From positions 1-53,455 of the IMG/VR virus record IMGVR_UViG_3300025466_000048: a DNA stretch of 53,455 nucleotides. One strand, written 5' to 3'. Shown one piece after another: positions 1,760 to 47,181 of this stretch (within the stretch, counting starts at the first letter, position 1; every line of letters starts with the position of its first letter). The stretch is from a virus (taxonomy: Duplodnaviria > Caudoviricetes). The notes beneath the pieces were generated by a model, which saw only the letters and a program-made list of their open reading frames with translations, did no database searches and was not told the origin of the DNA. The position numbers and the translations under genes were made by a program.

Positions 1760-1775
1760 GTGGCAACAACTCCAC
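1760..1775 (+). repeat. dispersed 16-bp site GTGGCAACAACTCCAC (perfect, intergenic)
   Basis: Direct read; immediately after the stop of 1487..1759. Confidence 0.95.
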
Positions 1776-1838
1776 TTTAAGCAAAAAAGCAACAAACTAA
1801 AATATTTTCAATTATTTTACAAAAATAAGGGTTTCCCC

Positions 1839-1868
1839 TAGACAGAATATCTAATATTTTGTTAGACT
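1839..1868 (+). promoter_or_regulatory. putative sigma70 promoter
   Basis: TAGACA-18bp-TAGACT with TGn extension, AT-rich upstream. Confidence 0.5.
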
Positions 1869-1913
1869 ACAAGAACTGAAACAAATTCAGGTTTAACCAA
1901 AAAGGAAATTATC

Positions 1914-2234
1914 ATGATTACAGAAACACAAGCAACTATCCAAGCTCTCGCAACAGTAGAGTCTTTATCATCTGACATCGATGCACTCTACGTGCTCGAC
2001 CAACAAGCCAAAGCATTGGCTGACAAAGTCAAAGAATTAAAAGCTTCCATCGCCAACAAGTACGATGTAGGCACACACAAAGGCGAGTTGCACTCAGTCA
2101 ACGTTGCTCTCTTCGAAGTCAAGGGTACAGTTGACTATCAAGCTCTCTGTGTTGCATACGGTATCACAGAAGAAGTTCTCAACACCTTCCGCAAAGAAGG
2201 CCGTGCTGACATCCGCGTTACCCCCAAGAAGTAA
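1914..2234 (+). CDS. hypothetical protein
   Basis: AAGGA RBS; clean ORF followed by a hairpin. Confidence 0.75.
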   Translation: MITETQATIQALATVESLSSDIDALYVLDQQAKALADKVKELKASIANKYDVGTHKGELHSVNVALFEVKGTVDYQALCVAYGITEEVLNTFRKEGRADIRVTPKK

Positions 2235-2241
2235 ATTTAAT

Positions 2242-2255
2242 GCCCCTTCGGGGGC
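2242..2255 (+). other. GCCCC-TTCG-GGGGC stable hairpin (weak terminator or stabiliser)
   Basis: C(UUCG)G tetraloop; no U-tract. Confidence 0.5.
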
Positions 2256-2270
2256 TATAAGGAGATATTC

Positions 2271-2453
2271 ATGAGCGACTCAGTAAGAATTCAAGCAGAC
2301 GAAAATCGTGCAGTATATGTTGGACAATTTGATCAAGACATTTGGTTGTCCATTCAAGTGCATGGTGGGGGTGCCCACTGCGTTATCCCAAGGGATCAAG
2401 CTAAGATAATGCTTGAGACTTTACAAAACTTTTTAACAAAAGAGGTGATATGA
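2271..2453 (+). CDS. hypothetical protein
   Basis: TAAGGAG RBS. Confidence 0.65.
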   Translation: MSDSVRIQADENRAVYVGQFDQDIWLSIQVHGGGAHCVIPRDQAKIMLETLQNFLTKEVI

Positions 2454-3406
2454 ATGAGTTGGCTCTTTTCGCAGGCGCTGGTGGAGGCATTCTCGGAGGA
2501 CATCTGCTCGGATGGCGAACCGTCTGTGCAGTCGAGTGGGAACCCTACCCAGCAAGCGTATTGTGCGCCCGACAAAATGACAAAATTCTTCCGCCTTTCC
2601 CGATTTGGGATGACGTACAAACCTTTGACGGAAGACCGTGGCGAGGAATTGTGCAAGTCGTATCGGGAGGCTTTCCTTGCCAGGACATCAGTTCCGCAGG
2701 CAAGGGAGCTGGTATCTCAGGCAAGCGGTCAAGTATGTGGGGACACATGGCACGGATTATTGGCGAGGTACGACCCCAATTCGCATTCGTGGAAAACAGC
2801 CCAATGCTCACTGTTCGAGGACTTGGAGTTGTCCTTGGAGACCTTTCCGAAATGGGGTATGACTGTCGGTATGGAGTTGTATCCGCTTCCAGTGTTGGTG
2901 CAAACCACAAGCGAGACAGAATCTGGATTGTGGCCTACTCCCAACACATTGGAGGGACTGAAGCCCAAAAAGATAGAGAGAATTATGGAATACAACCAGA
3001 AAGCTCGTCCAGGTCGCAGTTATGCGTCAATGAATTTGAGGGAGCAAGTTGTTTACGGGAAACAACCGATATGGCCTACACCCAACGCATGGGACGGGAA
3101 GAGAGGTCCAATGAGCAAAGAATTGATGGAGTCGGGAGCACATCAGATTACCTTGGTAACTGCGGTGAAACACTTTCAAACTCCAGTAGCAAGAATGTTC
3201 AAGGACAATGGACAATCCCCTGCGGAGTTGAACAGAAACTCGGAGACATTGGCAATGCAAGCTGGTGGGAGTCTGAACCCAACGTGGGTAGAGTGGCTAA
3301 TGGGGTGGCCTCTAGGGTGGACAGACTTAAAGCCATTGGAAATGGACAAGTCCCACTCTGCGCTGCAACAGCATGGACATTATTAAATAAAAGGTTGGAG
3401 GAATAA
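2450..3406 (+). CDS. dcm: C5 cytosine DNA methyltransferase, alpha-like chain
   Basis: Motif I LFAGAGG, IV GGFPCQD, VI ENSP, VIII HKRDRIWIV, X RLKAIGNGQVP; motif IX not evident in this frame. Confidence 0.9.
   Translation: MNELALFAGAGGGILGGHLLGWRTVCAVEWEPYPASVLCARQNDKILPPFPIWDDVQTFDGRPWRGIVQVVSGGFPCQDISSAGKGAGISGKRSSMWGHMARIIGEVRPQFAFVENSPMLTVRGLGVVLGDLSEMGYDCRYGVVSASSVGANHKRDRIWIVAYSQHIGGTEAQKDRENYGIQPESSSRSQLCVNEFEGASCLRETTDMAYTQRMGREERSNEQRIDGVGSTSDYLGNCGETLSNSSSKNVQGQWTIPCGVEQKLGDIGNASWWESEPNVGRVANGVASRVDRLKAIGNGQVPLCAATAWTLLNKRLEE
2454..3386 (+). CDS. overprinted +1-frame ORF, putative methyltransferase beta chain (TRD + motif IX)
   Basis: 310 stop-free codons; WPTP repeats; LNPTWVEWLMGWP resembles motif IX; true start uncertain. 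Confidence 0.7.
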   Translation: MSWLFSQALVEAFSEDICSDGEPSVQSSGNPTQQAYCAPDKMTKFFRLSRFGMTYKPLTEDRGEELCKSYREAFLARTSVPQARELVSQASGQVCGDTWHGLLARYDPNSHSWKTAQCSLFEDLELSLETFPKWGMTVGMELYPLPVLVQTTSETESGLWPTPNTLEGLKPKKIERIMEYNQKARPGRSYASMNLREQVVYGKQPIWPTPNAWDGKRGPMSKELMESGAHQITLVTAVKHFQTPVARMFKDNGQSPAELNRNSETLAMQAGGSLNPTWVEWLMGWPLGWTDLKPLEMDKSHSALQQHGHY

Positions 3407-3408
3407 AA

Positions 3409-3615
3409 ATGGATAAAGATTATGTTTATACCCCAGCGGGCACCGACATCGCCATTCGGTGGAAGGCCATGGGATGGATACCACCAAGCGAGCAGCCAGA
3501 GTATCAACAGAAGTGGAAGTTCTACCAAGAGCTACCCATGAGAAAGTTAGACGATAATGCCAAGAAAGAGTATGAGGCAGTCATGCGTAAGGCCAAAGTA
3601 GCAAGGATTAAATAA
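3409..3615 (+). CDS. hypothetical protein
   Basis: GGAGG RBS. Confidence 0.7.
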   Translation: MDKDYVYTPAGTDIAIRWKAMGWIPPSEQPEYQQKWKFYQELPMRKLDDNAKKEYEAVMRKAKVARIK

Positions 3616-3875
3616 TGGGATTTGCAAAACAAATATCTCCAACTAATCGAATACTTGAGCAACTAGACTTAAGTGAAAAAGTTCATCGCCTTGGCATGAT
3701 AGTTCCATTAGAGTTCAAAAACGAAGAGGGAAACAATCTAGCAATCTGCTCATCATGCTATGTTTTTAGCGCTCAAAAATTGCAAGAGTTTGTTTCTGAG
3801 ATTGTTGATTTCTCATACGATGAAACTTTTAATTTGATTAAAAGAAAAATGAGACAGATGGAGGAAACAGAATAA
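3615..3875 (+). CDS. hypothetical protein
   Basis: TAATG coupling at both ends. Confidence 0.6.
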   Translation: MGFAKQISPTNRILEQLDLSEKVHRLGMIVPLEFKNEEGNNLAICSSCYVFSAQKLQEFVSEIVDFSYDETFNLIKRKMRQMEETE

Positions 3876-4171
3876 TGGAAAAGAAAGAACTCAGTGGGTT
3901 GGCTCGCCAACTCCTACAAACATCAGGGGCTCAGACGTTCTTCACTCAGGCAGAGTTTGACGATGCCATAGCAATAGCCCAGGCAGAGATCATGCACATA
4001 GCAGTGGAGACCACCAAGAAAGCCATCTTTATTGAGCGCCAAGCATGCGCAGAATTGGCATTGCAAGGCACGGATGAGCCTGTACTGATCAAAACATTGG
4101 AAATACTCCAAGCAGAGCGTCAACGCATTCATGATGCCATCCTGAACCGCATACCATCACAAAGGCAGTAG
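3875..4171 (+). CDS. hypothetical protein (ERxAC motif)
   Basis: Coupled ORF; ERQACAELA resembles the 52-53 kb paralogues. Confidence 0.65.
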   Translation: MEKKELSGLARQLLQTSGAQTFFTQAEFDDAIAIAQAEIMHIAVETTKKAIFIERQACAELALQGTDEPVLIKTLEILQAERQRIHDAILNRIPSQRQ

Positions 4172-4261
4172 TATGAAAGACAAAACTGAATGGGCTCTAT
4201 ACTTGACGTATGTTTTTGCAGTTGTGGTGATCTTATTGGACATGCTATTTTGGAGGCAAGG

Positions 4262-4504
4262 ATGAACGATAAAGAAAGAGAAGAGTTAGATCAAAAGTTC
4301 GAGGAAGAGTACCAACGCATGGTGAGGCGCAATGACTGGAACGCAACCATCAGGATGGAGGTACCTTTGACCACCAAGCTTGTAATCCCTGACATGTTCA
4401 GGAATGCAGTATTGGAAGAAGTCGCGCTAGAGTTTGACAAGCTGAAGAACTTCGGAGATACAAGCCAATCGTTCGCAGCCTTTGTTCGAGGTATGAAGAA
4501 ATGA
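4262..4504 (+). CDS. hypothetical protein
   Basis: GGAGG RBS before ATG 4262; RNAVLEEVA motif. Confidence 0.6.
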   Translation: MNDKEREELDQKFEEEYQRMVRRNDWNATIRMEVPLTTKLVIPDMFRNAVLEEVALEFDKLKNFGDTSQSFAAFVRGMKK

Positions 4505-4658
4505 TCAATCCACCATCAAAGGATGTATGTTTGTATTTATCTCGTTATTACAACGAGCGAACAGGAAAACAATTCGAAAAGCTGTCATGGATGTGGCTTC
4601 TCTGTTGGGGGTTTTACGATCATTGGGTAGAAGACTGGTTACAAACAGAGGATTAAAT

Positions 4659-4916
4659 ATGGCAACCGCAACAAAAAAAGTGGCAACAACTCCACCCAAG
4701 AAGGCAGTGGCAACAACTCCAAAAAAAGAGAAGGTGGTAACGTTACCAGAGAAGATGTATTCCATGCCTGAAGAGGTTAAGGAATGGATAGACCAAGCCA
4801 TGAGTCGAATGAGGCACATGCAAGGAGAAATCTCGCGCCTCAAGGAAGAGAACGCACAACTCAAAGCCTATAGGAAGTTCGCAGAGCATAGAATCTTGAG
4901 AAGCGAAGCAGAATAA
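4659..4916 (+). CDS. hypothetical coiled-coil protein with Lys-rich N-tail
   Basis: GAGG RBS before ATG 4659; N-tail encoded by two 16-bp sites. Confidence 0.7.
   Translation: MATATKKVATTPPKKAVATTPKKEKVVTLPEKMYSMPEEVKEWIDQAMSRMRHMQGEISRLKEENAQLKAYRKFAEHRILRSEAE
4680..4722 (+). repeat. two 16-bp sites (4680 perfect, 4707 15/16), starts 27 bp apart
   Basis: Direct read; both read as VATTP. Confidence 0.95.
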
Positions 4917-5027
4917 GATAAACTTCAGGCTATGCACTGAAATATCGTGCGAAAGGACTGAAATCATGTCGTTAACACTAAAGTTATCAATTGGAAATAA
5001 ACAATTTAAAAATATTGGGAGGAGAGT

Positions 5028-5393
5028 ATGACTCCTAATAGGAAGGGCGCGGGGAGACCATCAGGAAGCCCCAACAAGGCAACATCAGACGCTAGGATAG
5101 CTATAGCTTCATTTGTGGATGGAAACGCTTATAGGCTCTCTGGATGGCTTGATCAAGTAGCCAATGGAGTTCCTAAGTTGGATGAGGATGGTAATCCTAC
5201 AGGGGAGTATGTCATACCACCGAATCCAGCGAAGGCGTTTGACCTGTTCCAAAGCGTAGTGGAGTATCACATCCCCAAACTGGCAAGGACTGAGTTGACT
5301 GGATCAGATACAGCACCAGTGATCATTGAGCACAACATCAATGTGTTTGGCCAGTTGTTGGAGAACATCAAGGCTTCGAGGCAATCCCAATGA
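5028..5393 (+). CDS. terS: terminase small subunit (putative)
   Basis: GAGRPSGSPNK N-terminus, YHIPKL...ELTG; upstream of terL. Confidence 0.7.
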   Translation: MTPNRKGAGRPSGSPNKATSDARIAIASFVDGNAYRLSGWLDQVANGVPKLDEDGNPTGEYVIPPNPAKAFDLFQSVVEYHIPKLARTELTGSDTAPVIIEHNINVFGQLLENIKASRQSQ

Positions 5394-5653
5394 AGTTCCG
5401 CAAGAAGCCTGTGGTGATCGAAGCCACGCAGTGGTTCAAGATGGGAGATCACCCGATGGTCTATGAGGTCATGGGTAATCCCAAGGAGATCAATGGATGG
5501 ATTAGGATTATTCCAACAGGAGAATACGCCATCAAAACCCTTGAAGGCCATCACATTGTCAGTACAGGCGACTGGATCATCACTGGCGTGAAGGGTGAGC
5601 ACTATCCATGTAAGCCAGACATCTTTGAGATGACTTATGAGGTGGCAGAATGA
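5390..5653 (+). CDS. PGDYG-like conserved phage protein
   Basis: FRKKPVVIEA...TLEG...GDWIITGVKGEHYPCKPDIF. Confidence 0.75.
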   Translation: MKFRKKPVVIEATQWFKMGDHPMVYEVMGNPKEINGWIRIIPTGEYAIKTLEGHHIVSTGDWIITGVKGEHYPCKPDIFEMTYEVAE

Positions 5654-5669
5654 ACCACTTCAAGCATAG

Positions 5670-7103
5670 ATGAGCGAAGTCATTGACGAAGTCCTCCTAG
5701 ACCCCAAGACTCAGGAGGAGTTCTATAAGCTATCAGTAGTCGATCAGACAGTATTCCTATGGCAGTATCAGTGGCTGAAAGAGAAGGCGCATAAGCACCA
5801 GATTGAGCCATCAGGGGATTGGTGGAGTATTTGGCTGATGCTCGCTGGTCGTGGGGCAGGCAAGACTAGAGCCGCCTCGGAATGCTTGGCATGGTGGGCA
5901 TGGAGTCAGCCTGGTACCCGTTGGCTAGTATCGGCTCCAACTTCAGGGGACTTGAAGGGCACATGCTTTGAGGGTGACTCAGGGTTGATGACCATCATCC
6001 CCCCAATGCTGATTGAGAAGTACAACTCCAGTCTGCATGAGATACACTTGACGAATGGATCCTTCATCAAGGGGATCGCAGCGTCCGAGCCTGAGCGCTT
6101 CCGTGGCCCTCAGTTCCATGGTGGATGGTGTGATGAGTTGGCAGCGTGGGAGTACATCCAAGAAGCTTGGGATATGATGCAGTTCGGCCTCCGACTGGGT
6201 AAGAAGACCAAGCTGATCTGCACCACAACTCCAAAGCCCAAAGACTTGATCCTTGATTTGGTCGGACGTGAGGGGGATGACGTGGCCATCACACGGGCAT
6301 CGACCTACTCGAACATCAAGAATCTGGCGGAGAACTTCCAGAAGCAGATCCTTCAGTATGAGTCCACCAAGCTCGGACGGCAAGAGATCTATGCTGAGTT
6401 GATCGACCCAGAGGCGGATGGTATCGTCAAGAGGGATTGGTTCAGACTATGGCCAGATGGCAAGCCCTTTCCCAAGCTTGAGTATGTCATCCAATCCTAT
6501 GACTGCGCAACCTCGGACAAGACATACAACGATCCTACAGGATCAATCACGCTAGGCGTGTTCAAGCCACTGGATGGAGGTATGTGCGTCATGGTGCTCG
6601 ACTGTTGGCAAGAACACCTCCAATACCCTGATCTCCGCCCCAAAGTCCTTGAGGAGTTCGAGGTGGCGTATGGAGAAGGAAGGGAGAAGAAGCTCGTAGA
6701 CGTGGTTCTGGTGGAGGACAAGTCCGCTGGCATCTCATTGATCCAAGACTTACAGAGGGCGCACATCCCAGTCATTGCATACAACCCTGGGCGAGCCGAC
6801 AAGATACAACGCCTCTCCATCGTGGCAAACATCATCAAAGCAGGACGAGTGTGGGTGCCTGAGTCATCCGTCCGTAAAGGATACGTAAAGGACTGGGCTG
6901 AAGGCATGGTGAGCCAGATCTGCTCGTTCCCTGAGACGGCTCATGATGAGTTCGTGGACTGCATCAGCCAAGGGCTCAGATACCTCAGAGACGCTGGATG
7001 GATCAGCATTGACATGCCAAGGCGTGATCCTTATGATGACTCAGACATTTTGGATGCGGATGAGCATAACAACAGAAGCCGAGCCAACCCATATGCACAG
7101 TAA
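5670..7103 (+). CDS. terL: terminase large subunit
   Basis: Walker A AGRGAGKT, Walker B WCDE, TTTP coupling motif, nuclease SYD...HDEFVD. Confidence 0.95.
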   Translation: MSEVIDEVLLDPKTQEEFYKLSVVDQTVFLWQYQWLKEKAHKHQIEPSGDWWSIWLMLAGRGAGKTRAASECLAWWAWSQPGTRWLVSAPTSGDLKGTCFEGDSGLMTIIPPMLIEKYNSSLHEIHLTNGSFIKGIAASEPERFRGPQFHGGWCDELAAWEYIQEAWDMMQFGLRLGKKTKLICTTTPKPKDLILDLVGREGDDVAITRASTYSNIKNLAENFQKQILQYESTKLGRQEIYAELIDPEADGIVKRDWFRLWPDGKPFPKLEYVIQSYDCATSDKTYNDPTGSITLGVFKPLDGGMCVMVLDCWQEHLQYPDLRPKVLEEFEVAYGEGREKKLVDVVLVEDKSAGISLIQDLQRAHIPVIAYNPGRADKIQRLSIVANIIKAGRVWVPESSVRKGYVKDWAEGMVSQICSFPETAHDEFVDCISQGLRYLRDAGWISIDMPRRDPYDDSDILDADEHNNRSRANPYAQ

Positions 7104-7104
7104 G

Positions 7105-7136
7105 GTGGCAACAACTCCACGTGGCAACAACTCCAC
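7105..7136 (+). repeat. two abutting perfect 16-bp sites
   Basis: GTGGCAACAACTCCAC x2 just after the terL stop. Confidence 0.95.
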
Positions 7137-7141
7137 TAGGG

Positions 7142-7170
7142 TTGAACATAATCAGGATAGAAGGCATAAT
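7142..7170 (+). promoter_or_regulatory. putative sigma70 promoter
   Basis: TTGAAC-17bp-CATAAT upstream of 7197. Confidence 0.5.
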
Positions 7171-7196
7171 GCAATCTATCCACTCTCATTCAGACC

Positions 7197-8519
7197 ATGG
7201 CTAAAAAACCCACACTAGACGAAATGCGCCTTGCCTTGAGTAAGGGTAAGACTAAGCATGAGCACGCTCATGAGAAGGCTAGACTTAACGCCATCAAGAT
7301 GCTTGGGTTACATGAAAAGAACACGGCTCAAGACCGAGCCAAAGCTATGGGCATGAACACAGATGTTTATCATGGGTCAAAGCAAGACATAAAAGGCGGA
7401 TTTAGCCCTGGCTATGACGACGAACTGTCTTTTGTAACGCCACATCCTGAGTTTGCTAATAAGTGGATAGGCAAAGGTAAATTCAACGAACGCACAGGCG
7501 ATCAAGCCAAAGCTGAAAGAGATGTTGCTGACGCTTTGTACAAGCAAATTAAATACAAAAACATGGATTATGAAAGCCTTGATAAATTAAAGGGCGATGA
7601 ATTCCATAATGAATATGACCGAAGAAATGCATTATCTAAATTTGATCTTGCAAAAGAATTTGGAACTCAAGGTCATCCAATGGGATTACATAACACTGTG
7701 TATCCATTAAAAATAAAGGCACACAAGACTTTTAATCCTGAAACAGACATGCATGTGATGGAAGAGTTCTTTAGAAATAATGGAATTCCACAAAGTAATA
7801 TTGATCTGTATAAAACTGGCAATTACATGATGTACGAGACTAAACCAGTTGTTAACTATTTGAAGAGCAAAGGCTATGACTCAATGAGATTACGTGAGTC
7901 AACTGATGATAATTACCCAACAATTGCTGTGTTTGATCCAAAACATGTTCGCTCAAGATTTGCAGCGTTTGATCCTGCTAGAGAGCATGAAAACGATTTG
8001 CTTGCTGCCAAAGGCGGTGAGGTGTTGCCCCATCATCAGCGTGAGGCAAATAAGGCTAAGTTCCTTGAGTCAAGTGCCGTTAAAGATAGGGTGTTTCATG
8101 GAACTACAAAAGACTTTACGGCATTTAAAAAGGGTCGAAACTGGTTTTCAACTGACCCAGAGTATGCCAACATTTATGGCGGAGAACTAACTGAAAATCA
8201 TGGTGAGAATGGAAGAGTAATGCCTTTACATGTTCAAGCCAAGAATCCAAAGACATTTCATGCATCACAAAAAGGAATGATGGAATGGACTAAATCTGAG
8301 CATCATGATCAACATTTAAAACGCAAAGGGCATGATTCAGTTTTATTTGTTGACGACAATGGCAAAGTTGCAACTGGATATACATTTGAACCAACTCAGA
8401 TTAAGTCAGCCATCGGTAACCGTGGCACATACGACGTCAATGAGCCAGACATTACAAAAGCCAAGGGTGGACAAGTCACCCACGCACATCATTTAGAAAT
8501 AGAGGAGCGCCCGTTATGA
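7197..8519 (+). CDS. polyvalent protein with two ADP-ribosyltransferase-like (ART-PolyVal-like) domains
   Basis: Two copies of the (Y/F)HG...F.T....A...V.PL...LK.KG.DS...F.P...S pattern. Confidence 0.7.
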   Translation: MAKKPTLDEMRLALSKGKTKHEHAHEKARLNAIKMLGLHEKNTAQDRAKAMGMNTDVYHGSKQDIKGGFSPGYDDELSFVTPHPEFANKWIGKGKFNERTGDQAKAERDVADALYKQIKYKNMDYESLDKLKGDEFHNEYDRRNALSKFDLAKEFGTQGHPMGLHNTVYPLKIKAHKTFNPETDMHVMEEFFRNNGIPQSNIDLYKTGNYMMYETKPVVNYLKSKGYDSMRLRESTDDNYPTIAVFDPKHVRSRFAAFDPAREHENDLLAAKGGEVLPHHQREANKAKFLESSAVKDRVFHGTTKDFTAFKKGRNWFSTDPEYANIYGGELTENHGENGRVMPLHVQAKNPKTFHASQKGMMEWTKSEHHDQHLKRKGHDSVLFVDDNGKVATGYTFEPTQIKSAIGNRGTYDVNEPDITKAKGGQVTHAHHLEIEERPL

Positions 8520-11500
8520 ATGAGTTAGTCGGCAAGGGCAGACCCTTCTATTCAGCTTTGGACATGGGGGCTAAGGCCCTCAAGCGTAAGGTAGGAACTG
8601 GTGCTGAGTTCCTCAAGGAGTTGATGGCATTGCCTGGTGTCAAACCCACCGAGTTGAAAGAGCGTGGACTAGAAGAATTGATGAATGCGCCTAAGATGAC
8701 GCATGATCAGTTCCTTGGCCAACTGGCAAGAAAACCAGCGCCCAAGATCAATGAGAAGGTACTGACTGAAGGTGGCAACGACGAAACAATCCAAGAGTTA
8801 ATAGACAGAGATGCTAGGGAATACGCTAATCGAGAGATTGGAACTAGCCCAAGGATGCGTGATGATTGGTCAGAAACTTATGATGACTTCGTTGAAAACG
8901 CCAATCAGAATAAGTATTTAGAATACCAAAAAGAAGCTGACAAGTTAGTTAGACAAGGATTGGCTGACCCTGCGGTGGCTCACTTTGAATACACATTGCC
9001 TGGCGGTGAGAACTACAGAGAGATGTTGATTAAAGACCCACAAGGTAAGTTTGGAGGCGTCCCAGCACACTTCCATGGCGAGCCTAACATCATAGCTTCG
9101 ATGCGTCTTAAAGACCGTACAGGCCCTAACGGTGAGAAATTGTTGCACCTAGAGGAGTTACAGTCAGACTGGCATCAACAAGGTAGAGAAAAAGGTTATT
9201 CACAAGGTTTGACACCTGAAGAACAAGCTGAATTAGTTAAGTTAAGTAGCTTACCATATAATTATTTGCATGATAATAAACATTTATCAGAAAAATATTA
9301 TGCATTAGCAGAAAAGAAAAAAGGTGTACCCGATGCCCCATTCAAAAAGAATTGGGAAGAGATGGCCATCAAACGGTTGATCCATCACGCTGCTGAGAAG
9401 GGCTACCATGGCATCGTCATGACGCCTGGAAAAGAACAAAACAAACGATATAGGTTGTCTAAACATGTTGGATCTGTTTCATATAACCCAGAAGATCAAC
9501 ACTTTCAGGCTTTTAAACCAAATAGAGAAACTGTTGTCAACGAAAAATTTGCTAGTCCTGAACGTGTTGCTGAATTGATTGGCAAAGAGGCATCAGAAAA
9601 GTTATTGTCGGCACCCAAACAAATGGGACACCATTACCTTGAAGGTGAAGACTTAGACATTGGTGGCCAAGGCATGAAAGGCTTTTACGACAAAAAAGTC
9701 CCCAACATATTTAATGCTGTGGGTAAGAAGCATGGCGTTAAGATGGAGTTGCATAAACATCCAATTGAAACTGGCAAAGAACAAATGATTCCTGACAATG
9801 CTAGACTTGGAATGATTAGATCAGGTAATCCAGAACATGCTCAATTACACCACTTCCCCATCACAGAACCAATGCGTGAAGACGTATTAAAGAACGGACT
9901 ACCTCTATACAAAACAGGTGGAGTAGTCCATAAAGCCGAAGGAGGCAACGTGCAACCTACAGTCGAACAAATGCGCATGGCGCTACAAAACAAGAGTACG
10001 TTTCCAAAGTTTGGCATTCAGTCCATCGGAGCCAATGAAGCGCCTGACTTGTCTCCCAAGTATTACATCCAACCCAACAAAGATGGCAACTTAGGTGTTG
10101 GTGGTGTGGACATGGATAACATAACCCCTGGCATGCAATTGGTAAAGCAAGAAATACCAAACATGAATCCACCCAATAGTCCCAATGCTCCACAAGCCCC
10201 ACAAAGCCCGTTGGGAGCACCTCCAAGCCCTCAAGGTGGACAAAGCAATATCCTTAACCTGACACCACAAGGACAAGCATTGGGCGCTATGACGCCTTCA
10301 CAGACCCCACAGGGTTTAGCTAAAGGAGGTACACCTAAATCAGTTGAGGACATGAAAGCAGAATTGTCCAAAAAGAAAACTGAAAAATCTAAACGTGTTG
10401 AAGTTAAAGCTGAAGGATCAGGTGGCGTTAAGGGAATTGTTGTTCCTCGTCATTTGATTGAAGGTAACCCTAAAGCAAGTGCTGAAGGGTTAAAAAATAT
10501 GATGAGTGCAAGAGCTAAAATATATGGTTCAGAACATCGTGAGCCTTTAACACTTGGGCAAATGGCAAAAATTCACAAAGATATACTAAGTCAACATTTT
10601 GCCCAACCAAGAGAAATCCAATTACAAAATGAATCAAGTGCATTAAATCGCATTCGCTCAGCTAAGTTTATCAAACACAACAAAGACACACTAGACGAAT
10701 CTGAAAAATTAGATACCGTTCATCATGAACATGACTCACAAGGTCGATCTTATGTTGGATATGCATCTAAAGGTATAGCAGGACATGCTTTGTATCCTAG
10801 AGGCCATGGCAAAAATATGGATTACAAAGTGATTAATACTTGCCCTGGTCAAACCGAAGGTTGTGGTGGTGGTACTGATGCCAAAGGAATTGTTGACACA
10901 AGTAAGGGTACATGTTTTGCACCTAATTCAGAATCACAGTACGCGGCAGCCGCTAGTCGTCGTGCAGGTCACGCCATTGCAAAACATGATCCTGAAATGA
11001 CTAAAGATTGGATATTAGCCCATACAGGTTCAATTAGAAATGCTACAGAAAGAGCAGATAAACAAAACAAAAGAATGTTGTTTCGTCCTAATGTAGTGGA
11101 TGAAACAGATGTGTCTTCTCGTCATGTTATTCGCCATTTGAATGAACAACGTGCAAAAGAAGGAAAACCACCAATTATTGCTAATTCATATGGGAAGACC
11201 AATGAGTTGCATGACCCTGAAAATGGATATTATGTAACTCACTCCAACGTTGGCCCTAAAACCAAGCATGGACAATCAATTGCTGAAAACATATCACGTG
11301 ATAAAGCAAGAATAAGAAACACAATTTTAGCTGCTGATAACAGAGGCGACTTTGTAAATGAACAAGGACACAAAACACCACCCAAAGGTTCTTACATGGT
11401 TACAAATGTAAAACGTGGATCACCCATGGCAAAAAACATGGAAAAGGTTATTAAGCATGCCAAGTATTGGTCTGTAGGACGTCCACAAAACGAATTGACC

Positions 11501-12178
11501 AAAGAAGAAAGAGAAGAAGGCCCTGAAGGGCATTTCAATGGATTGGGTCATCCAACAACAGAAGACAAATCCCATTATGGTCACAAGACTTTAAATGATT
11601 TGAGATTTGACTATCAACGACAACATATTCTTCATCCACGTTTAGTGCAAGTTGGTCACAATGATGACGGTACTCCACACATGATTCCTACTGACTCAAG
11701 ATTTAAAGATGAAGAGGTATTAAACAAACAAGTCAAAAATCGTTATATGACTAAAAATGGCAAAGTTGCTGGACATATTTTAATGACCACACCAACTGAA
11801 TCTACTAGCAATGTGGGACATCAAACATCATTTACACATAATGTAAGTGATGAAGACATCAAACACGCTGTAAAAACAAAAGGTGAATACGTAATTGACA
11901 AACCTGAAGATCAGTTACGAAGCGCAAACAAAGAATATGTTGCACCACAACCAATTAAGATTATTCGCAAAGCGGACGGTGGTTTGGTTGGTGAAAGACA
12001 TCGGGGTTATAGTGATGATGATTTCCATGCATTCCCTGAGCAAAACCCAATTGCACAACGTCACTTAGCAATGCGTCGTGGTGAAGATGAAGATATGCCT
12101 TATCATGCGCCCAAACCAAATGTTATGATTAACAAAAACTTGGATACTATGATTCTTGAATTGATGAGGAAAAAATAA
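8516..12178 (+). CDS. large polyvalent protein (LPD-like N-region, GP88-like C-region)
   Basis: FYSAL, YTLPGGENYREML, EELQSDWHQQGR, PDAPFK; C-terminal TCP...C...CFA...RPN..D. Confidence 0.65.
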   Translation: MNELVGKGRPFYSALDMGAKALKRKVGTGAEFLKELMALPGVKPTELKERGLEELMNAPKMTHDQFLGQLARKPAPKINEKVLTEGGNDETIQELIDRDAREYANREIGTSPRMRDDWSETYDDFVENANQNKYLEYQKEADKLVRQGLADPAVAHFEYTLPGGENYREMLIKDPQGKFGGVPAHFHGEPNIIASMRLKDRTGPNGEKLLHLEELQSDWHQQGREKGYSQGLTPEEQAELVKLSSLPYNYLHDNKHLSEKYYALAEKKKGVPDAPFKKNWEEMAIKRLIHHAAEKGYHGIVMTPGKEQNKRYRLSKHVGSVSYNPEDQHFQAFKPNRETVVNEKFASPERVAELIGKEASEKLLSAPKQMGHHYLEGEDLDIGGQGMKGFYDKKVPNIFNAVGKKHGVKMELHKHPIETGKEQMIPDNARLGMIRSGNPEHAQLHHFPITEPMREDVLKNGLPLYKTGGVVHKAEGGNVQPTVEQMRMALQNKSTFPKFGIQSIGANEAPDLSPKYYIQPNKDGNLGVGGVDMDNITPGMQLVKQEIPNMNPPNSPNAPQAPQSPLGAPPSPQGGQSNILNLTPQGQALGAMTPSQTPQGLAKGGTPKSVEDMKAELSKKKTEKSKRVEVKAEGSGGVKGIVVPRHLIEGNPKASAEGLKNMMSARAKIYGSEHREPLTLGQMAKIHKDILSQHFAQPREIQLQNESSALNRIRSAKFIKHNKDTLDESEKLDTVHHEHDSQGRSYVGYASKGIAGHALYPRGHGKNMDYKVINTCPGQTEGCGGGTDAKGIVDTSKGTCFAPNSESQYAAAASRRAGHAIAKHDPEMTKDWILAHTGSIRNATERADKQNKRMLFRPNVVDETDVSSRHVIRHLNEQRAKEGKPPIIANSYGKTNELHDPENGYYVTHSNVGPKTKHGQSIAENISRDKARIRNTILAADNRGDFVNEQGHKTPPKGSYMVTNVKRGSPMAKNMEKVIKHAKYWSVGRPQNELTKEEREEGPEGHFNGLGHPTTEDKSHYGHKTLNDLRFDYQRQHILHPRLVQVGHNDDGTPHMIPTDSRFKDEEVLNKQVKNRYMTKNGKVAGHILMTTPTESTSNVGHQTSFTHNVSDEDIKHAVKTKGEYVIDKPEDQLRSANKEYVAPQPIKIIRKADGGLVGERHRGYSDDDFHAFPEQNPIAQRHLAMRRGEDEDMPYHAPKPNVMINKNLDTMILELMRKK

Positions 12179-14964: not shown

Positions 14965-15042
14965 GTCGCACTCCGCGACTGAGGCCGCGCTGAAAAGCGC
15001 TTTAACGATGCACCTGAGATATGGTGTTTTTTAGGAGTTAGT

Positions 15043-15495: not shown

Positions 15496-15506
15496 GGGAA
15501 AATATC

Positions 15507-16505: not shown

Positions 16506-16520
16506 TACTTGGAGTAAAAC

Positions 16521-38300: not shown

Positions 38301-38969
38301 GGTAGCACTTTCCAAGATTTGGTAAAACAAACAGAGTACAAGAACATTGCGCCTGTAGCCCCTACGATTTTGCAAGCCGCGCCCGTGACTCAACAAGAGT
38401 CTAGGATAAGCCCTCTACATTACCTCAAGCAAGGCATCAGGAGAGAAGCTCCAAGCACTTCTTTGCTTGCCAAAGGGGGGTTACCCAAGAAGTACCATGA
38501 AGCCATGCCAGAGGGTCATAATCCCGAATTTATCACTGGTTTGACGGGTTACTATGCCAGTGGCAAAGGAACGGGTCAGAGCGATGATATCCCAGCGATG
38601 CTCCACGAAGGTGATCATGTGGCTGATGCTGATGTAGTTGCAGCATTGGGTGATGGATCAAGCAAAGCTGGCGCCCAAGTTTTAGATAATTTAAGAAAAA
38701 GTATTCCTTATGCAAAAGGTGGTGAGGCTAAATCTGAGCCAGTACCCGCCAAAATTGCAGATGGTGAATATGTTTTTCCTGCGGCATTTGTAACTGCACT
38801 TGGTGGTGGGGATAATAAATTAGGTGCAAAATTATTAGATACTATGAGGGAAGAGCTAAGAAAACACAAGCGATCAGCTCCAGATAACAAAATTCCCCCA
38901 AAAGCCTTTTCCCCATTAAAATACATAGAAATGGGACTTAAGGGCAATGGCACAAGAAAATTTAAGTAA
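35352..38969 (+). CDS. large internal virion/ejection protein (putative)
   Basis: 1205 aa; PT and GTPS repeats; G.GTGQSDDIPAML and ADGEYV motifs; sites at 35748(+) and 37777(-). Confidence 0.65.
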   Translation: MADDTGLVNSWFAANPNATQADAAAAVQAYGGLTPDLAQALATHYGTSADNVNTAYQQLTAPTPTPTPTPVPAPTPVPTPTPTSSPLATPTYTQYTPDQIQNYLTSNPGVNVALAEQKTNADPNAVASVIAGMATTPNNPLASIVQGNIKPTYTNTEIAADANAILNSGGTYADVAKELDAKGVTPTQLATALNINPAYVQNQYNIADPTGSQVKAYSGDKAPSTASDTSNNFNTTYNALQYGNTKVVQTGADESGAPTYGLQDANGNILPGTPIDMGNGVYDVQVGSAGGIIHTYTTLSSDGTLNPVTDYSTQVDYTGGNKGGFVNQVASGISALSPVLGPASAILAPELPLLGTVLSGANTVNAINNNNPLGALLGGVNTALSLNGTGPVTDKSPLDQGTVDLLKNAQTGLTIANAIKTNNPLALASTVSKALGINTDPLVANALTGASLALAISKNDMNGMMSAAMSLAKSNNPTIASSAQKVIDTANNGGDVTQAASDMTQYVDKAQKYYDYAISQGKSDAEATMFVNATLGGGGGGSMVNTMLDLGTVGGYPNGMPIVPPATLGSSGVGTSANVNSGGTNAPSYIPLDKLDVGNPLVTNATNAINNAIDTNGVPEGTDLSGGTYVKSENDPDTGETVFSVQKPVSFTNADGQSTGYTIMYEPVSGKTMYVYQQYNNQTGNWTIAQSAQPPTFNDQSQQFDNIKPLDIPPEAKDSTSKTDTTTESPLVNAGVTDNTKNDVNSKVNSPLVDNKPTSNDVNPDLVSPLATQTGPNSTSKVPSNISGPFPLGGSPVGAIANTNGTSPSGVVANVSPNYNNFGVPSGVPTGTPSGTPSGTPSGTPSGTPSGTPTPTSTPTSTPTPTSTPSSTPSSSPLSTPTKTTTTTTGGGSSNTSLPMVATMLAGAPVYGDQAHLQKLKQLYDSLDPGLAQLLAKEGIKAPEVAKQQEQSDQPTAEQLAEINKEIKSEQPPVAEQMLMADGGSTFQDLVKQTEYKNIAPVAPTILQAAPVTQQESRISPLHYLKQGIRREAPSTSLLAKGGLPKKYHEAMPEGHNPEFITGLTGYYASGKGTGQSDDIPAMLHEGDHVADADVVAALGDGSSKAGAQVLDNLRKSIPYAKGGEAKSEPVPAKIADGEYVFPAAFVTALGGGDNKLGAKLLDTMREELRKHKRSAPDNKIPPKAFSPLKYIEMGLKGNGTRKFK
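37818..37980 (+). repeat. coding tandem repeats (12-nt GTPS units, then TPTS)
   Basis: GGTACTCCTTCT-like units with synonymous variation. Confidence 0.8.
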
Positions 38970-43162: not shown

Positions 43163-43954
43163 TTAAACTCCAAAAGAATTTTTGATTTTCCAGTAGTGCA
43201 AAAGGGTTTGGAACATCTCCCACCCACGTTTGAGGTCGGCTTCTGACCATTCGACAATTCGAATGAGGCCAGGGTAACTAACCGATGCAAACACATTCGC
43301 ACAGCGAGCATGGGGGATGCCGAGTCCGTAGCGGTAGGCTGCGAGTTGCATACACTGTTCGTCATAGCCCTCGATCTTGTCGTCCTCACCAAACTCCTTG
43401 GTCTTCGCATCTAAAACGATCCCCAAGGGGGCTGTTTCGTCTGGCATGCAATGCAAATCCACCTTACCACCGTACCCCATGTTGTTGGAGAAAGAACGCT
43501 CTGTGAGCCATTCTTGGAAGGGGTGAGTACCGAAGTGCTCGAATACCTTTTCCTCGAATGCCTTGGCGATGTCAATGTGCTCGACATCCTTGCGTCCACC
43601 GTACCACTTCTCAATGGATTCGTGGACACGGGTTCCCCGTTCGGCTGCGCGTTTTCCCGTTTCTTTGGAGTCGGCAACGATGCGAGCAATGAAGGCTTGC
43701 TCGGTCTCGCCTTGGACTCGTGGGAGGGTGAGCGCTGCCAACAGCATCTGCTCGTTCTTCCAGACCTCTAGACCGGGCTTAGCGATGACTTTCAAGATGG
43801 TTGATACCGAAGGCACCAAGTTCATCTTGCGAGCGTCTCCAAGCGTTGTAGGGCGGTCTGAGCCGTTCTTTGCCTTAACTGTGTACTGTGGTGCTCCATC
43901 CTCTGCACGGTACCAATGCGTTCCTTCAGAAGCTCTTGCAATAATTGTTGTCAT
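43163..43954 (-). CDS. PD-(D/E)xK (Cas4/lambda-exo-like) exonuclease
   Basis: PSVSTIL, RGTRVH, YGGKVD, LDAKT, QLAAY. Confidence 0.85.
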   Translation of the reverse strand: MTTIIARASEGTHWYRAEDGAPQYTVKAKNGSDRPTTLGDARKMNLVPSVSTILKVIAKPGLEVWKNEQMLLAALTLPRVQGETEQAFIARIVADSKETGKRAAERGTRVHESIEKWYGGRKDVEHIDIAKAFEEKVFEHFGTHPFQEWLTERSFSNNMGYGGKVDLHCMPDETAPLGIVLDAKTKEFGEDDKIEGYDEQCMQLAAYRYGLGIPHARCANVFASVSYPGLIRIVEWSEADLKRGWEMFQTLLHYWKIKNSFGV

Positions 43955-44553: not shown

Positions 44554-45195
44554 CTAAAACGGAATATCCGAGTCCACATCTTCATCAATACTTGCAACAG
44601 ATGAAGTGGAGTTGTTGCCACCCTTGGCTTTATTGAACTCAGGGGAAGCAATGATTTTTTGCTTCAAGTTGTCGCTGAATGTCTCAAACATATCCCAGTT
44701 GGGGTTGTCGAGGTTGAACATCTCGATCTTATTGACGCCTTCAGGAAGACCTGCCTTCTTCATCATGGATGGGACTGGCGTCACGGTGTCAATGTTGACG
44801 TAGGTTTTGCCGTCCTTGCCTGGTCGCTCAATCACGTTCAGCAAGCACCAAGCGCCAAGGACTGTTTCCAAGTCAAAGCGACGCATTTCCTCTTGGGTGA
44901 ATGGCTTACCCCTCCATGACTGTAGATCAAGCCTTAGATTGGCTTTCTCGCTCCACGATAGGGTGTAGTTCTTGAACATTGCAAAGGGACGACCATCACG
45001 CATTTTGAGCGTTGTGCCATCCTCTTTGGTGGTGTGGATTTCCCATCCAAGCATGATCTTGTGTAGGAACTTGACTTGACCCATGTACTCAGACTTCTGA
45101 GTGCCTAGATCAACGATTCGGTAGCACCGTGCGAGGTGCATACCAGGTGGACATGATTCAAATGCTCCACCAGATTCTTCAACGTAAAAAGCCAT
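44554..45195 (-). CDS. single-stranded DNA-binding protein (putative)
   Basis: ARCYRIVDLGTQ; acidic tail ending DIPF; perfect 16-bp site at 44606..44621. Confidence 0.75.
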   Translation of the reverse strand: MAFYVEESGGAFESCPPGMHLARCYRIVDLGTQKSEYMGQVKFLHKIMLGWEIHTTKEDGTTLKMRDGRPFAMFKNYTLSWSEKANLRLDLQSWRGKPFTQEEMRRFDLETVLGAWCLLNVIERPGKDGKTYVNIDTVTPVPSMMKKAGLPEGVNKIEMFNLDNPNWDMFETFSDNLKQKIIASPEFNKAKGGNNSTSSVASIDEDVDSDIPF

Positions 45196-45242
45196 AACAT
45201 TCTCCAATAACGAGATAACACGTTCAAATCGAACGCAGACGA

Positions 45243-45291: not shown

Positions 45292-45298
45292 AAAAATA

Positions 45299-45446
45299 AC
45301 ACCAAGAAGTGTGGGGGCTGAGTGGGCATGAAGTCGGTCAAGGGCGCTCTGAACTGCAGTGTCTGGCCAGTAAATTGTAGTTAACGCTTTCATCCCGATA
45401 CTCCACGCAGGTCGCAACTGCAATCAGTCTTCACTCTTGTTGGTGT
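45299..45446 (+). ncRNA. candidate structured RNA or long leader, about 150 nt
   Basis: Nested long-range stems with G-U pairs, starting at the predicted TSS. Confidence 0.5.
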
Positions 45447-45466
45447 CATAACAAAAGGAATAAAGA

Positions 45467-45667
45467 ATGACATTGGAGGAATATTTTAAAGACGAGCCAA
45501 GGGGGGCTAAAGCTGAGATGGCTGAGTATTTGGGCATCTCCCCTACATGGCTTGGGCAAATACTTAGTGGGGTGAGGAAGGCATCTCCTAAGCTTGCAAT
45601 AGCGATTGAGAAGGCGACACAAGGCTTGGTCACACGCAAAGACATGCGACCAGACTTGTATCTCTAA
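45467..45667 (+). CDS. Cro/YdaS-like HTH regulator
   Basis: KAEMAEYLGISPTWLGQI..G.RK.SP.LA..IE.AT.G.V....RPD. Confidence 0.88.
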   Translation: MTLEEYFKDEPRGAKAEMAEYLGISPTWLGQILSGVRKASPKLAIAIEKATQGLVTRKDMRPDLYL

Positions 45668-45685
45668 AAAATGATATAGTATTGT

Positions 45686-45762
45686 AGAACACGGATAAGT
45701 TGGGATTGATCCCCTAACTGAAAAGCGTACCTCCCGCCTGCCGTTGTTTCTTTCTGGAGGTG
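45686..45762 (+). promoter_or_regulatory. candidate cis-regulatory RNA with pseudoknot onto GGAGG
   Basis: Multi-stem element; loop TACCTCC complementary to GGAGGTG at 45756. Confidence 0.45.
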
Positions 45763-45775
45763 TTGCGAGGTTTAC

Positions 45776-46369
45776 ATGAAAATTTGTTCTACATGCAAGG
45801 CATCAAAGCCTTTTGAAGAGTTCTATATAAATAAAAGAACTCTTGATGGTTATTGCTATCAATGCAAAAAATGCCAAATTATTTATAACAAAAAATGGAT
45901 TGAAAAAAATCCAGAAAAAAAACAAATATATAAAGAAAAAGATATTTCAAGATTTAATGCTTGGAGCAAAAAATGGCGTGCTGAAAATCCTGAAAAAATT
46001 AAAGAGAGAGATGCAAAATATTATAAAAAAAATTCAGAAAAAATTAAAGAAAAAAAACAAATATATAGAAAAGAAAATCCTGAAATTATTTCTGTTGCAA
46101 GACACCGTTATAGAGCATTAAAACGTAATGCAAGTGGTTCTTATAACAAAGAAGACATTCAATTTTTGTTTATTGCGCAACGTGGTCTTTGTGCCATGTG
46201 TCAGGTAGACATTAAAAAACAAAAACATCATGTAGATCACATCATGCCATTAGCGCGTCAAGGAACAAATGATAAAACAAATTTGCAATTACTTTGCCCA
46301 ACATGCAATCGCAAAAAAAGTGCAAAACACCCCATAGACTTTGCCCAACAAATGGGCTTTCTTTTATAA
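45776..46369 (+). CDS. HNH endonuclease (free-standing, homing-like)
   Basis: N-terminal CxxC...CxxC; CAMC...HVDHIMPL..G.N...NLQLLCPTCNRKK; markedly AT-rich. Confidence 0.92.
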   Translation: MKICSTCKASKPFEEFYINKRTLDGYCYQCKKCQIIYNKKWIEKNPEKKQIYKEKDISRFNAWSKKWRAENPEKIKERDAKYYKKNSEKIKEKKQIYRKENPEIISVARHRYRALKRNASGSYNKEDIQFLFIAQRGLCAMCQVDIKKQKHHVDHIMPLARQGTNDKTNLQLLCPTCNRKKSAKHPIDFAQQMGFLL

Positions 46370-46383
46370 CTTTGGAGAACAAT

Positions 46384-47181
46384 ATGGCAATAAGAATGGT
46401 AAATTTGAAAGACATACGGATTGATGGAGGCACACAATTCCGTGAAGCAATTGATCAAGACTTGGTCAAAGAGTACAAAGAAGACATGCTCGGTGGAGAC
46501 GTTTTTCCTCTGATAGACTGCACATTTGATGGTTCAACTTATTGGTTGGCTCGTGGGTTTCACCGATACTTTGCCATGCAAGCTTTAGGGCTGAAACAAG
46601 TGGAGATCAACTATAAGCCTGGTACTCAAGAGGATGCCCAAGACTGGGCTTTGGGGGACAACGCTGAACATGGCTTGCGTCGCAGTCCAAAGACCAAGCG
46701 CAATCAAGTGGAGTCTGCTCTGTCCATGGAACGCCATAAGGACAAGTCTGACCGTGAAATAGCAAAACTCTGTAAGGTAAGCCACACCTTTGTGGCGTCT
46801 ATGAGAAATCCCAAGGTCAAAGAACGCCAAGCAGAAAACCAGAAAAAACACAAGGAAAGTGGCAACAACTCCACTCCTGTTGAGACTGGCAACAACTCCA
46901 CTTATGTGGAAAAACCATCCATGACTCAAGACTTTGCGCCCTCTGCGGAGGAGCTTGAGGCGAATCAATTGATGATTCAGCGCGACATGGAGGTCATGAA
47001 TAAGATTCTAGAATCTGATGATGTGATTGCTACCCTACACGCTGAAGTCAAGAGGTTAAGCGATGACAATGCAAGCTTACAGAGCCGAGTCAATGCTTTG
47101 ATGAGAGAAAAGAACAAAGCTGTGGAGTTGTTACAGAAAGCCCAACGTGAATTAGACAAACTCAAGAAAGCCAAAAAATGA
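46384..47181 (+). CDS. ParB-like protein (ParB/Srx N-domain + HTH + coiled coil)
   Basis: GGAG RBS; TQFR, FP.I, GFHRYFA, N..HG; HTH SDREIAKLCKVSHTFVASMR; C-terminal heptads. Confidence 0.8.
   Translation: MAIRMVNLKDIRIDGGTQFREAIDQDLVKEYKEDMLGGDVFPLIDCTFDGSTYWLARGFHRYFAMQALGLKQVEINYKPGTQEDAQDWALGDNAEHGLRRSPKTKRNQVESALSMERHKDKSDREIAKLCKVSHTFVASMRNPKVKERQAENQKKHKESGNNSTPVETGNNSTYVEKPSMTQDFAPSAEELEANQLMIQRDMEVMNKILESDDVIATLHAEVKRLSDDNASLQSRVNALMREKNKAVELLQKAQRELDKLKKAKK
46859..46901 (+). repeat. two 16-bp sites (46859 perfect, 46886 15/16) inside the ParB-like gene, starts 27 bp apart
   Basis: Direct read; both read as GNNST. Confidence 0.95.

Follow-up and report, generated by a model that had tools for sequence, protein, structure and literature searches.

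The window analysed here is an IMG/VR virus record of 53,455 nt (IMGVR_UViG_3300025466_000048), a freshwater phage genome estimated to be 97% complete, over which a 16-bp DNA word, GTGGCAACAACTCCAC (hereafter A), is dispersed. Two copies of the word lie inside a gene for a 265-aa ParB-like protein (46384-47181, (+)), which is the candidate reader of the word. Nine copies are exact. One follows directly 3' of the open reading frame (ORF) at 1487-1759 (1760-1775, (+)) and pairs with an inverted half-site at 1736-1743, and two lie in tandem (7105-7136, (+); second copy from 7121), starting 2 nt after the stop codon of the large terminase gene terL (5670-7103). The others lie within ORFs: in a lysine-rich ORF at 4527-4916 (4680-4695, (+), read as VATTP), in ORF 15507-16505 (15624-15639, (+), VATTP), in the tail of a 52-aa ORF at 27988-28146 (28114-28129, (+), VATTP), in ORF 29205-29786 (29644-29659, (+), SGNNST), in a gene for a protein resembling single-stranded-DNA-binding (SSB) proteins, within the linker that precedes its acidic DSDIPF tail (44606-44621, (-), sense to the gene at 44554-45207(-)), and in the linker of the ParB-like gene (46859-46874, (+), SGNNST).

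Seven further copies match at 15 of 16 positions. These are found in ORF 4527-4916 (4707-4722, (+)), 3' of the capsid-like gene 17741-18655 (18666-18681, (-)), where the variant base lengthens a hairpin, twice in ORF 22622-23695 (22932-22947, (-), GGVVAN; 23271-23286, (+), LGNNST), in ORF 31614-32843 (31732-31747, (-), SGVVAN), in ORF 35352-38969 (37777-37792, (-), SGVVAN) and, as the second copy, in the ParB-like linker (46886-46901, (+), TGNNST). ORF 35352-38969 also holds a 14/16 copy (35748-35763, (+), MATTP), a 14/16 near-copy lies in the portal gene (12790-12805, (-)), and ORF 32840-35095 carries the exact 12-mer core of the word with diverged arms (34185-34200, (-)). An earlier sequence-only reading of the window had located all nine exact copies, all seven 15/16 copies and the 14/16 copy at 35748, as well as four weaker ones (15782, 25802, 34185 and 34530) that match the core GGCAACAACTCC with at most one mismatch. 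It had allowed that its count by eye might be incomplete, and the copies at 12790(-) (14/16) and 13709(-) had indeed been overlooked.

The word is enriched irrespective of the encoded proteins

No exact copy of A was obtained in 100 dinucleotide-preserving shuffles of the window; with up to two mismatches allowed, the window holds 18 copies (shuffle mean 0.03, maximum 1). The core GGCAACAACTCC is present 17 times exactly and 23 times with at most one mismatch (shuffle mean 0.33), and the 14-mer TGGCAACAACTCCA, with 16 copies, is the top-ranked repeated 14-mer of the window. Because positions 1 and 16 of the word vary (G/T/A/C and C/A), its fixed part is 14 bp long, and the flanks outside the word are not conserved.

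About three quarters of the copies lie inside ORFs, where the word is translated as VATTP, GNNST or, from the opposite strand, GVVA(N). The sequence-only reading had noted these three peptides and had placed many copies in linkers or tails, which holds for several of them (the lysine-rich stretch of 4527-4916, the tail of 44554-45207(-) and the linker of 46384-47181). It had also taken the word for a signal at the level of DNA and had proposed a scan against codon-preserving shuffles. In synonymous-codon shuffles with proteins and codon usage kept (n = 200), the 5, 11 and 13 in-gene copies at 0, up to 1 and up to 2 mismatches fall to means of 0.01, 0.18 and 1.06, figures from which five copies outside the shuffled codons have been subtracted. 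The enrichment stands, and since codon shuffling destroys the in-gene copies, the proteins do not explain the DNA word; both this loss and the use of three frames on both strands bear out the DNA-level claim. Among 14 exact 15-mers, 11 are sense and 3 antisense (one-sided binomial ~0.03), or 15 against 8 when weaker copies are included, a split on which we do not rely.

The word is not an assembly artefact, a possibility that the same reading had raised. Contigs from four of four other public sequencing runs cover all 30 bins of 1500-19000, one of them (X12 record 12) spans the tandem pair at 7105-7136 with 0 differences, and three contigs span 4680-4722, again with 0 differences. Contigs of three of these four runs stop at 7105-7108, as expected for a short repeat of variable copy number; the tandem copy number at 7105-7136 probably varies in the population, since relatives carry two, four or five copies. 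A scan of viral contigs returned mostly single matches to the word and one contig set with multiple copies, in which tandem arrays reach up to five 16-bp units.

Relatives carry their own words at the same places

Relatives of the ParB-like protein numbered 295 in an IMG/VR scan. From these, 80 loci were taken and 28 genes tabulated, which together with GenBank record MW202545.1 gives 29 homologous genes. Identity to the window is 88-95% across the aligned parts for four related genomes (G002-G005) and 71.5% over 19.5 kb for a fifth (G001); all five carry the word, mostly at homologous places. G003 (~92% identical to the window) has a second word, the perfect palindrome GTGGTAACGTTACCAC (hereafter P), which exactly replaces A at two loci, the pair after terL and the pair inside the ParB-like gene. 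Its ParB-like protein has a coiled coil nearly identical to that of the window protein, and its N-domain and helix-turn-helix (HTH) are diverged (swapped). The ParB-like protein of G001 is far more distant, yet it has a similar HTH, and its gene has A in the linker. Copies of P at 15/16 also occur in the window, one at 4734-4749 (+), 27 bp after the site at 4707, and an intergenic one at 22168-22183 (+) that is conserved in G002 and G003. A triplet of A, A (15/16) and P-type (15/16) with 27-bp spacing in a lysine-rich stretch has one and the same arrangement in the window (4680-4749) and in G003 (17936-18005).

The linker that follows the HTH holds a site of 13-17 bp, once or twice, in 23 of the 29 homologous genes, and this site is mostly a perfect palindrome. 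Examples are GTGGAGTC-G-GACTCCAC, GTGGAATC-G-GATTCCAC, GTGCAGTT-A-AACTGCAC and GTGTAATC-G-GATTACAC, and further CGCGATT-G-AATCGCG, TCGGTT-T-AACCGA and TACTAGTC-A-GACTAGTA. In four of five further complete genomes (G006-G010) the linker site is the most repeated 12-mer genome-wide, with 8 copies in G006, 5 in G007, 7-14 in G008 and 8 in G009. MW202545.1 likewise has 8 copies of its own linker site, which is its genome's most repeated 12-mer. Nine related genomes each possess a 13-17-bp site of their own, usually palindromic, and relatives do carry dispersed words of their own, a question that the sequence-only reading had posed.

We compared the region 3' of terL in genomes with a well-aligned terL C-terminus and a contig that continues beyond it (the G005 contig ends there and the G010 terL aligns weakly). 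A site of the phage's own type, replaced in G001 by a related palindrome, is found within ~80 nt 3' of terL in 9 of 10 such genomes: A is present twice in the window, four times in G002 and five times in G004, P twice in G003, the own palindrome in G006 (twice), G007, G008 and G009, and TGTAGTTAACTACA in G001. MW202545.1 shows the same pattern, with two copies there. Own-type sites are also found 3' of the homologue of ORF 1487-1759 (G006, G007, G009), in the homologue of the lysine-rich ORF 4527-4916 (G001, G003, G009), at the capsid-gene terminator (G006) and in the homologue of 22622-23695 (G001, G008, G009). Positions are kept while the word changes between relatives.

Other repeats were seen among these phages. 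More distant phage loci with a ParB-like gene (L274, L277, L279, L288, L289 and L308) share a repeat, AGGAGATCAGAC(GAATGA), with 4-7 copies per locus, which resembles a conserved context of ribosome site plus start. In G010 (L342-L345; 63 kb), 12-mers that have no relation to the ParB-like site are repeated as well, among them GAACAAAATGTA with 7 copies.

The ParB-like protein has a predicted ParB-type fold

The product of 46384-47181 matches PHROG 1033 ('ParB-like partition protein') with E 6e-16, and the homologous gene of MW202545.1 carries the annotation 'parB-like nuclease domain'. Searched against the Protein Data Bank (PDB), a profile built from 28 homologues returned sulfiredoxin (6ky4, E 3.8e-7), ParB (7o0n, E 2.3e-5) and Spo0J (1vz0, E 7.9e-4). 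An AlphaFold (AF2) model has a mean pLDDT (predicted value of the local distance difference test) of 86, with values below 50 at residues 163-183, a disordered linker. The best Foldseek matches of this model are ParB bound to cytidine diphosphate (ParB-CDP; 7bnk, E 5.1e-8; 6sdk, E 7.5e-8), Noc (7ng0, 7nfu, 7ol9), ParB-parS and KorB (8qa9, E 2e-5), over an alignment of ~140 residues that comprises the N-domain and the HTH. The models place a ParB/sulfiredoxin (Srx)-type fold at the N-terminus, where the protein begins directly with the N-domain (strand at residues 2-7); it is followed by the HTH (helices 123-130 and 134-141), the linker 163-183 that holds the two sites, and a long C-terminal helix (188-264).

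The homodimer is modelled as a parallel coiled coil. Its interaction prediction score from aligned errors (ipSAE) is 0.53, against 0.00 for the best control, a mark that 20 of 30 solved homo-pairs attain, as does 1 of 23 single chains, although a coiled coil may score well by likeness to known coiled coils. Runs have at least 69% of contacts in common and a partner pLDDT of at least 66. Overall, the modelling supports a dimer.

In the alignment to ParB 7o0n, TQ-R corresponds to QPR, GFHRYFA to GARRWRA and N93 to the N of ENL, with two arginines of the patch replaced by H and F. Residues T17, Q18, R20, G58, H60, R61 and A64 are invariant across the 28 homologues. Neither the window nor G010 yielded a second ParB-like protein or similar HTH. 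No match to ParA (AAA_31) was obtained in the 97%-complete genome, nor in PHROG/Pfam scans of the ORFs submitted. By tblastn, four phage records were retrieved; in the sole cultured phage among them, Acidovorax phage AP1, the match is confined to the coiled coil.

Recognition-helix residues covary with the half-site

We placed the half-sites in a common register and compared them with X1 and X2, the first two residues of the recognition helix in V-S-X1-X2-F-V. The residue at X1 goes together with base 4: H with G (11/11), D with C (4/4), V with T (2/2), G with C (1 case), and Q with A or T (1 case each). The residue at X2 goes together with base 6: T or S with G in 12 of 13 cases, the exception being G010, and P with A in all 7. 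A tree was built from the protein minus HTH and linker; on it, three sister pairs (L253/L256, L260/L269 and window/L250) differ in having T/S or P and, along with it, G or A. The combination of an H-P helix with GTGGAATC appears in two distant branches (L256, L273), as does that of V with GTGT (L271, L272), and the window and G001 have A in common though they are not sisters.

On the opposite strand, the right half of A reads GTGGAGTT, which is the half-site expected for an H-T helix and is palindromic in the L260 gene and in G001; the left half, GTGGCAAC, is palindromic in G010. By this comparison, A is a hybrid of two half-sites, 16 bp long instead of 17 bp. In the window, 27 occurrences of the half-site GTGGAGTT stand against 1.6 expected, 10 of them outside full sites. 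Written as AACTCCAC, the half-site has the same counts, and the 10 places outside full sites include 716(-), 1736(-), 29714 and 36484(-).

Copies appear to have arisen in place

Comparison of homologous codons points to the origin of individual copies. At 34185, NGVVQE in five of five relatives reads NGVVAE in the window, and the change of Q to A completes the 12-mer core. At 23271, LGVNST in four relatives has become LGNNST, and at 31732, SSVVAN has become SGVVAN, with additional synonymous changes. These comparisons indicate that copies arose in place by point changes, some of which altered amino acids that relatives conserve. Coincidence is the probable origin of the near-copy at 12790: it encodes a conserved peptide, CVEFLPI, and G007, which uses a different site, has identical DNA there.

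The word is probably the cognate site of the ParB-like protein

We conclude that the 16-mer is probably the cognate DNA site of the orphan ParB-like protein that the phage itself encodes, on the basis of the enrichment of the word, the presence of one ParB-fold HTH protein in the genome, the two sites in its linker, the linker sites of homologues and their high copy number in complete relatives, the homodimer model, the kept positions with changing words, the covariation with the recognition helix, the apparent origin of copies in situ and the swap in G003. The sequence-only reading had proposed a binding site for a dimeric protein, selected into the genome wherever the proteins tolerate it. 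A candidate for such a protein is now at hand in the phage ParB-like HTH protein, with its predicted coiled-coil homodimer and its helix-site covariation, and the point changes (Q to A at 34185, V to N at 23271 and S to G at 31732) are in line with the second half of that proposal. In the mechanism that we envisage, each HTH of the dimer would read one 8-bp half-site, the canonical half being GTGGAGTT.

A number of observations weigh against this conclusion. No linker site was found in 6 of the 29 homologues, and in G010 the linker site is confined to the gene, with another palindrome, TGGCAACGTTGCCA, dispersed in 3 copies. G003 retains 8 A-type sites despite its P-type protein and P linker sites, the palindrome 3' of terL in G001 is another one, TGTAGTTAACTACA, with A sites numbering only 4 in that genome, and the conclusion does not account for the A-A-P triplet in ORF 4527-4916 of the window and G003. 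As for the covariation, many of its rows are relatives, so that the counts overstate independence, and the protein gene and the linker site are adjacent and co-inherited. The site of the window is asymmetric: only the 3-4-bp GTGG/CCAC arms mirror each other, the 8 inner bases are fixed in 16 copies, and a symmetric dimer does not explain fixed asymmetric inner bases. With regard to the fold, Pfam ParB_N (PF02195) scores 15.7 bits (E 5.8e-4), below the curated cut-off of 26.3, and a general Pfam scan gave no match at E <= 0.01 for the protein. Nucleotide binding is uncertain because the arginine patch reads GFHRYFA. Finally, promoter-like matches in the region 3' of terL are not above those in shuffles.

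One alternative keeps the ParB-like protein as the reader of the sites and assigns it an enzymatic or recruiting role, in which it would nick or cut through a 'ParB-like nuclease' N-domain, as the annotation of the MW202545.1 gene would have it, or bring in a DNA-modifying enzyme such as the C5-cytosine methyltransferase at 2450-3406. The window has this methyltransferase and MW202545.1 a putative 2-oxoglutarate (2OG)-Fe(II) oxygenase, and phage ParB-like proteins have been described, in the portion of 10.1101/2025.08.14.668559 available to us, as switching on thymidine dioxygenases. However, as far as that portion goes, the dioxygenase-linked ParBs have no DNA-binding domain and are adjacent to their enzyme (10.1101/2025.08.14.668559), whereas the window protein has a DNA-binding domain and is encoded in the neighbourhood of a Cro-like ORF, an HNH insert and a helicase. 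We consider such a role unlikely.

A shade less likely still is that another protein reads the sites, for instance the packaging machinery, in view of the cluster beside terL, or the HTH protein of the Cro-like type (45467-45667), with the ParB-like gene merely carrying copies. The best-conserved position of the site is at the end of terL, and the Cro-like ORF is found a short way upstream of the ParB-like gene, as this alternative would have it. Yet the Cro-like proteins of G003 and the window differ by one residue outside the HTH, and the two phages have P and A sites, respectively; sites spread over 45 kb are unlike a pac site; and the site covaries with two residues of the ParB-like helix in combinations that recur in distant branches.

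That the word acts as an RNA or single-strand hairpin (a terminator, or an element of transcript stability) rather than as a protein site is improbable. In the strongest terminator-like element of 1-20000, the stem-loop is made by the site at 18666 (fold z -3.13), the site at 1760 is part of a stable hairpin (1730-1790, fold z -3.06), and the sites of relatives are palindromic. Against this, in three of five site regions the fold does not surpass that of shuffles (z -0.5 to -1.2), the word itself makes a stem of only 4 bp, copies lie in both orientations inside ORFs, 0 Rfam matches were obtained at gathering scores, and covariation with HTH residues would not be expected of a hairpin. Least credible of all is a host-linked signal copied from the host (an uptake sequence, a Chi-like or a restriction-related word): such words are likewise short, dispersed and frame-independent, but phages 92% identical have different words at the same places, and a scan of 185,579 species genomes (one per species) for the 15-mer gave single scattered matches in unrelated phyla, with 1 match in each of 80 rows among the matches listed and at least 120 stretches, where ~1,100 chance matches are expected in 596 Gb.

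Several other candidates were rejected. Non-conserved flanks speak against a small mobile element, and an insert of 16 bp would break frames. A known RNA found no Rfam or tRNA match. A sigma-54 promoter and nick sites of the T5/phiKMV type were dropped because the copies within ORFs point both ways and are not constant from one close relative to the next.

Proposed output of the system

Downstream of terL, a promoter-like element that matches the consensus (TTGAAC-17-CATAAT, 7142-7170, (+)) starts 5 nt after the tandem sites. Its -10-like part, GGCATAAT, occurs only once in the window, and 7 of the 9 genomes examined retain it 3' of terL. A repeated promoter word was considered and rejected, as AGGCATAAT is unique in the window. 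About 12 further sites are spread over packaging, virion, lysis and recombination genes (1.7-47 kb). An ART-PolyVal (ADP-ribosyltransferase) protein (7197-8519) and a 1220-aa protein, located between terL and the portal gene (7197-12178), form the block downstream of the terL-proximal sites.

Control of transcription is the most likely output of the system, and any particular function is proposed with much lower confidence than the identity of the site. We favour transcription control because the best-conserved position adjoins a conserved promoter-like element before the virion-gene block, and another site is inside a terminator. The sites may work like KorB operators or Noc-binding sites (NBS), with loading and sliding of the protein if the N-domain remains a nucleotide-gated clamp; a site every ~3 kb would place most of the genome within reach. 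Candidate roles of the protein are those of a nucleotide-gated sliding clamp, a plain repressor or activator, a DNA organiser and an enzyme recruiter.

A more far-reaching reading, which we regard as possible but doubtful, is that of a fast-evolving 'identity tag' in freshwater phages: a clamp with rewritten loading sites, a two-residue code and specificity groups, by which chromosomes would recognise themselves in mixed infections. The first residue of the recognition helix would set base 4 and the second base 6, and sites would be written despite their amino-acid cost. On a switch of specificity, sites at fixed places would be rewritten, first in the own linker and at the terL-proximal promoter. 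Near-identical, co-circulating phages would then be split into specificity groups, with self-recognition serving transcription or packaging, and the asymmetric word, whose two half-sites are palindromic in relatives, might be a caught intermediate or a directional variant.

Comparison with known systems

By fold and layout, we infer that the system is KorB-OB- or Noc-NBS-like, that is, a ParA-less ParB-type dimer with many sites on its own replicon. Plasmid RK2 has 12 OB sites. Its KorB protein is described, in the part of PMC11790492 that was available, as a sliding clamp gated by cytidine triphosphate (CTP) that controls promoters near and far from OB operators. The likeness lies in a ParB-family HTH protein with several palindromic sites over its own replicon. 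However, KorB is part of a partition system of the ParA type and acts together with KorA, whereas the phage has no AAA_31 match (no search for a KorA-like partner was made); in the phage, most sites are in coding sequence, two are in the protein's own gene, and dimerisation would be through the coiled coil. The Noc protein of Bacillus, a ParA-less ParB paralogue according to the accessible text of 10.1101/2022.02.28.481274, has many dispersed palindromic sites (NBS). Noc structures are among the top Foldseek matches of the phage protein, and the window, as is characteristic of KorB and Noc, carries many copies of one inverted-repeat site over its own replicon. Noc differs in being a chromosomal protein that anchors DNA at the membrane and prevents division; the phage protein has no room for an N-terminal membrane helix.

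The four inverted-repeat (IR) sites of phage-plasmid N15 are scattered through its genome. Its SopB is a ParB-family protein with several separate sites, IR1-4 (PMC7205306, in the part available). N15 differs in having SopA and in being a plasmid prophage; the window, without a ParA or tyrosine integrase match, has ~4x more sites, mostly in ORFs. Chromosomal ParB-parS has in common with the phage system a 16-bp inverted-repeat site, an HTH dimer and the fold match over ~140 residues, and the parS site inside the parB (spo0J) gene is a parallel to the sites in the protein's own gene. Unlike ParB, the phage protein has no ParA partner, no ParA-binding N-terminal peptide and an altered arginine patch (GFHRYFA), and its site is asymmetric.

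The stoperators of mycobacteriophage L5 and the C1 operators of phage P1 are asymmetric sites of 13-17 bp, present in tens of copies, some of them in genes, through which one phage protein controls transcription globally. The L5 and P1 proteins are immunity repressors and not of the ParB fold, and stoperators are strictly oriented with transcription, whereas the word of the window is in mixed orientation (11 sense and 3 antisense of the 14 exact 15-mers). Orphan, ParA-less homologues of the ParB-CTPase fold are stated to be widespread on phages and prophages and mostly uncharacterised (PMC12704722, available part). For these and for the phage ParBs of 10.1101/2025.08.14.668559, the available parts of the two sources name no cognate DNA sites in phage genomes. 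In the literature covered, to which most subscription journals and supplements do not belong, no ParB-like protein of a phage was found to be described together with cognate genome-dispersed sites.

Other features of the window

The remaining annotated genes comprise a Holliday-junction resolvase (706-1155), the portal (12178-14664), a tail fibre (26113-27540), a spanin (29779-30339) and an endolysin (30326-30916), followed by a minus-strand block with an exonuclease (43163-43954, (-)) and the SSB-like protein (44554-45207, (-)). The latter belongs to a PHROG family of unknown function, and the word lies in the linker just before its C-terminus, ...DEDVDSDIPF, an acidic tail that we take to be of the SSB-protein type. 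The ParB-like gene is followed by a helicase (47360-49705) and a primase (49702-50577). The helicase (781 aa) contains an intein (Pfam Intein_splicing, E 4e-9); its homologues in G003 and G001 have 507 aa and no intein. An HNH endonuclease gene (45776-46369) lies between the Cro-like ORF and the ParB-like gene and looks like a homing-type insertion, since it is absent at the same place in G003 and G001. No tRNA was found in the window by a tRNA scan, and a search for a tyrosine integrase found none.

Implications

If true, our reading of the word extends the idea behind KorB and Noc, a ParB-type protein with many dispersed sites, to tailed phages without ParA. It would offer a family whose DNA targets can be read straight from genomes, with a predicted residue-to-base code, natural specificity switches and fixed target positions. 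For annotation, it would account for a class of unexplained top-ranked repeats in phage contigs. It would also mean that a DNA-binding protein can shape coding sequence, up to the point of amino-acid change.

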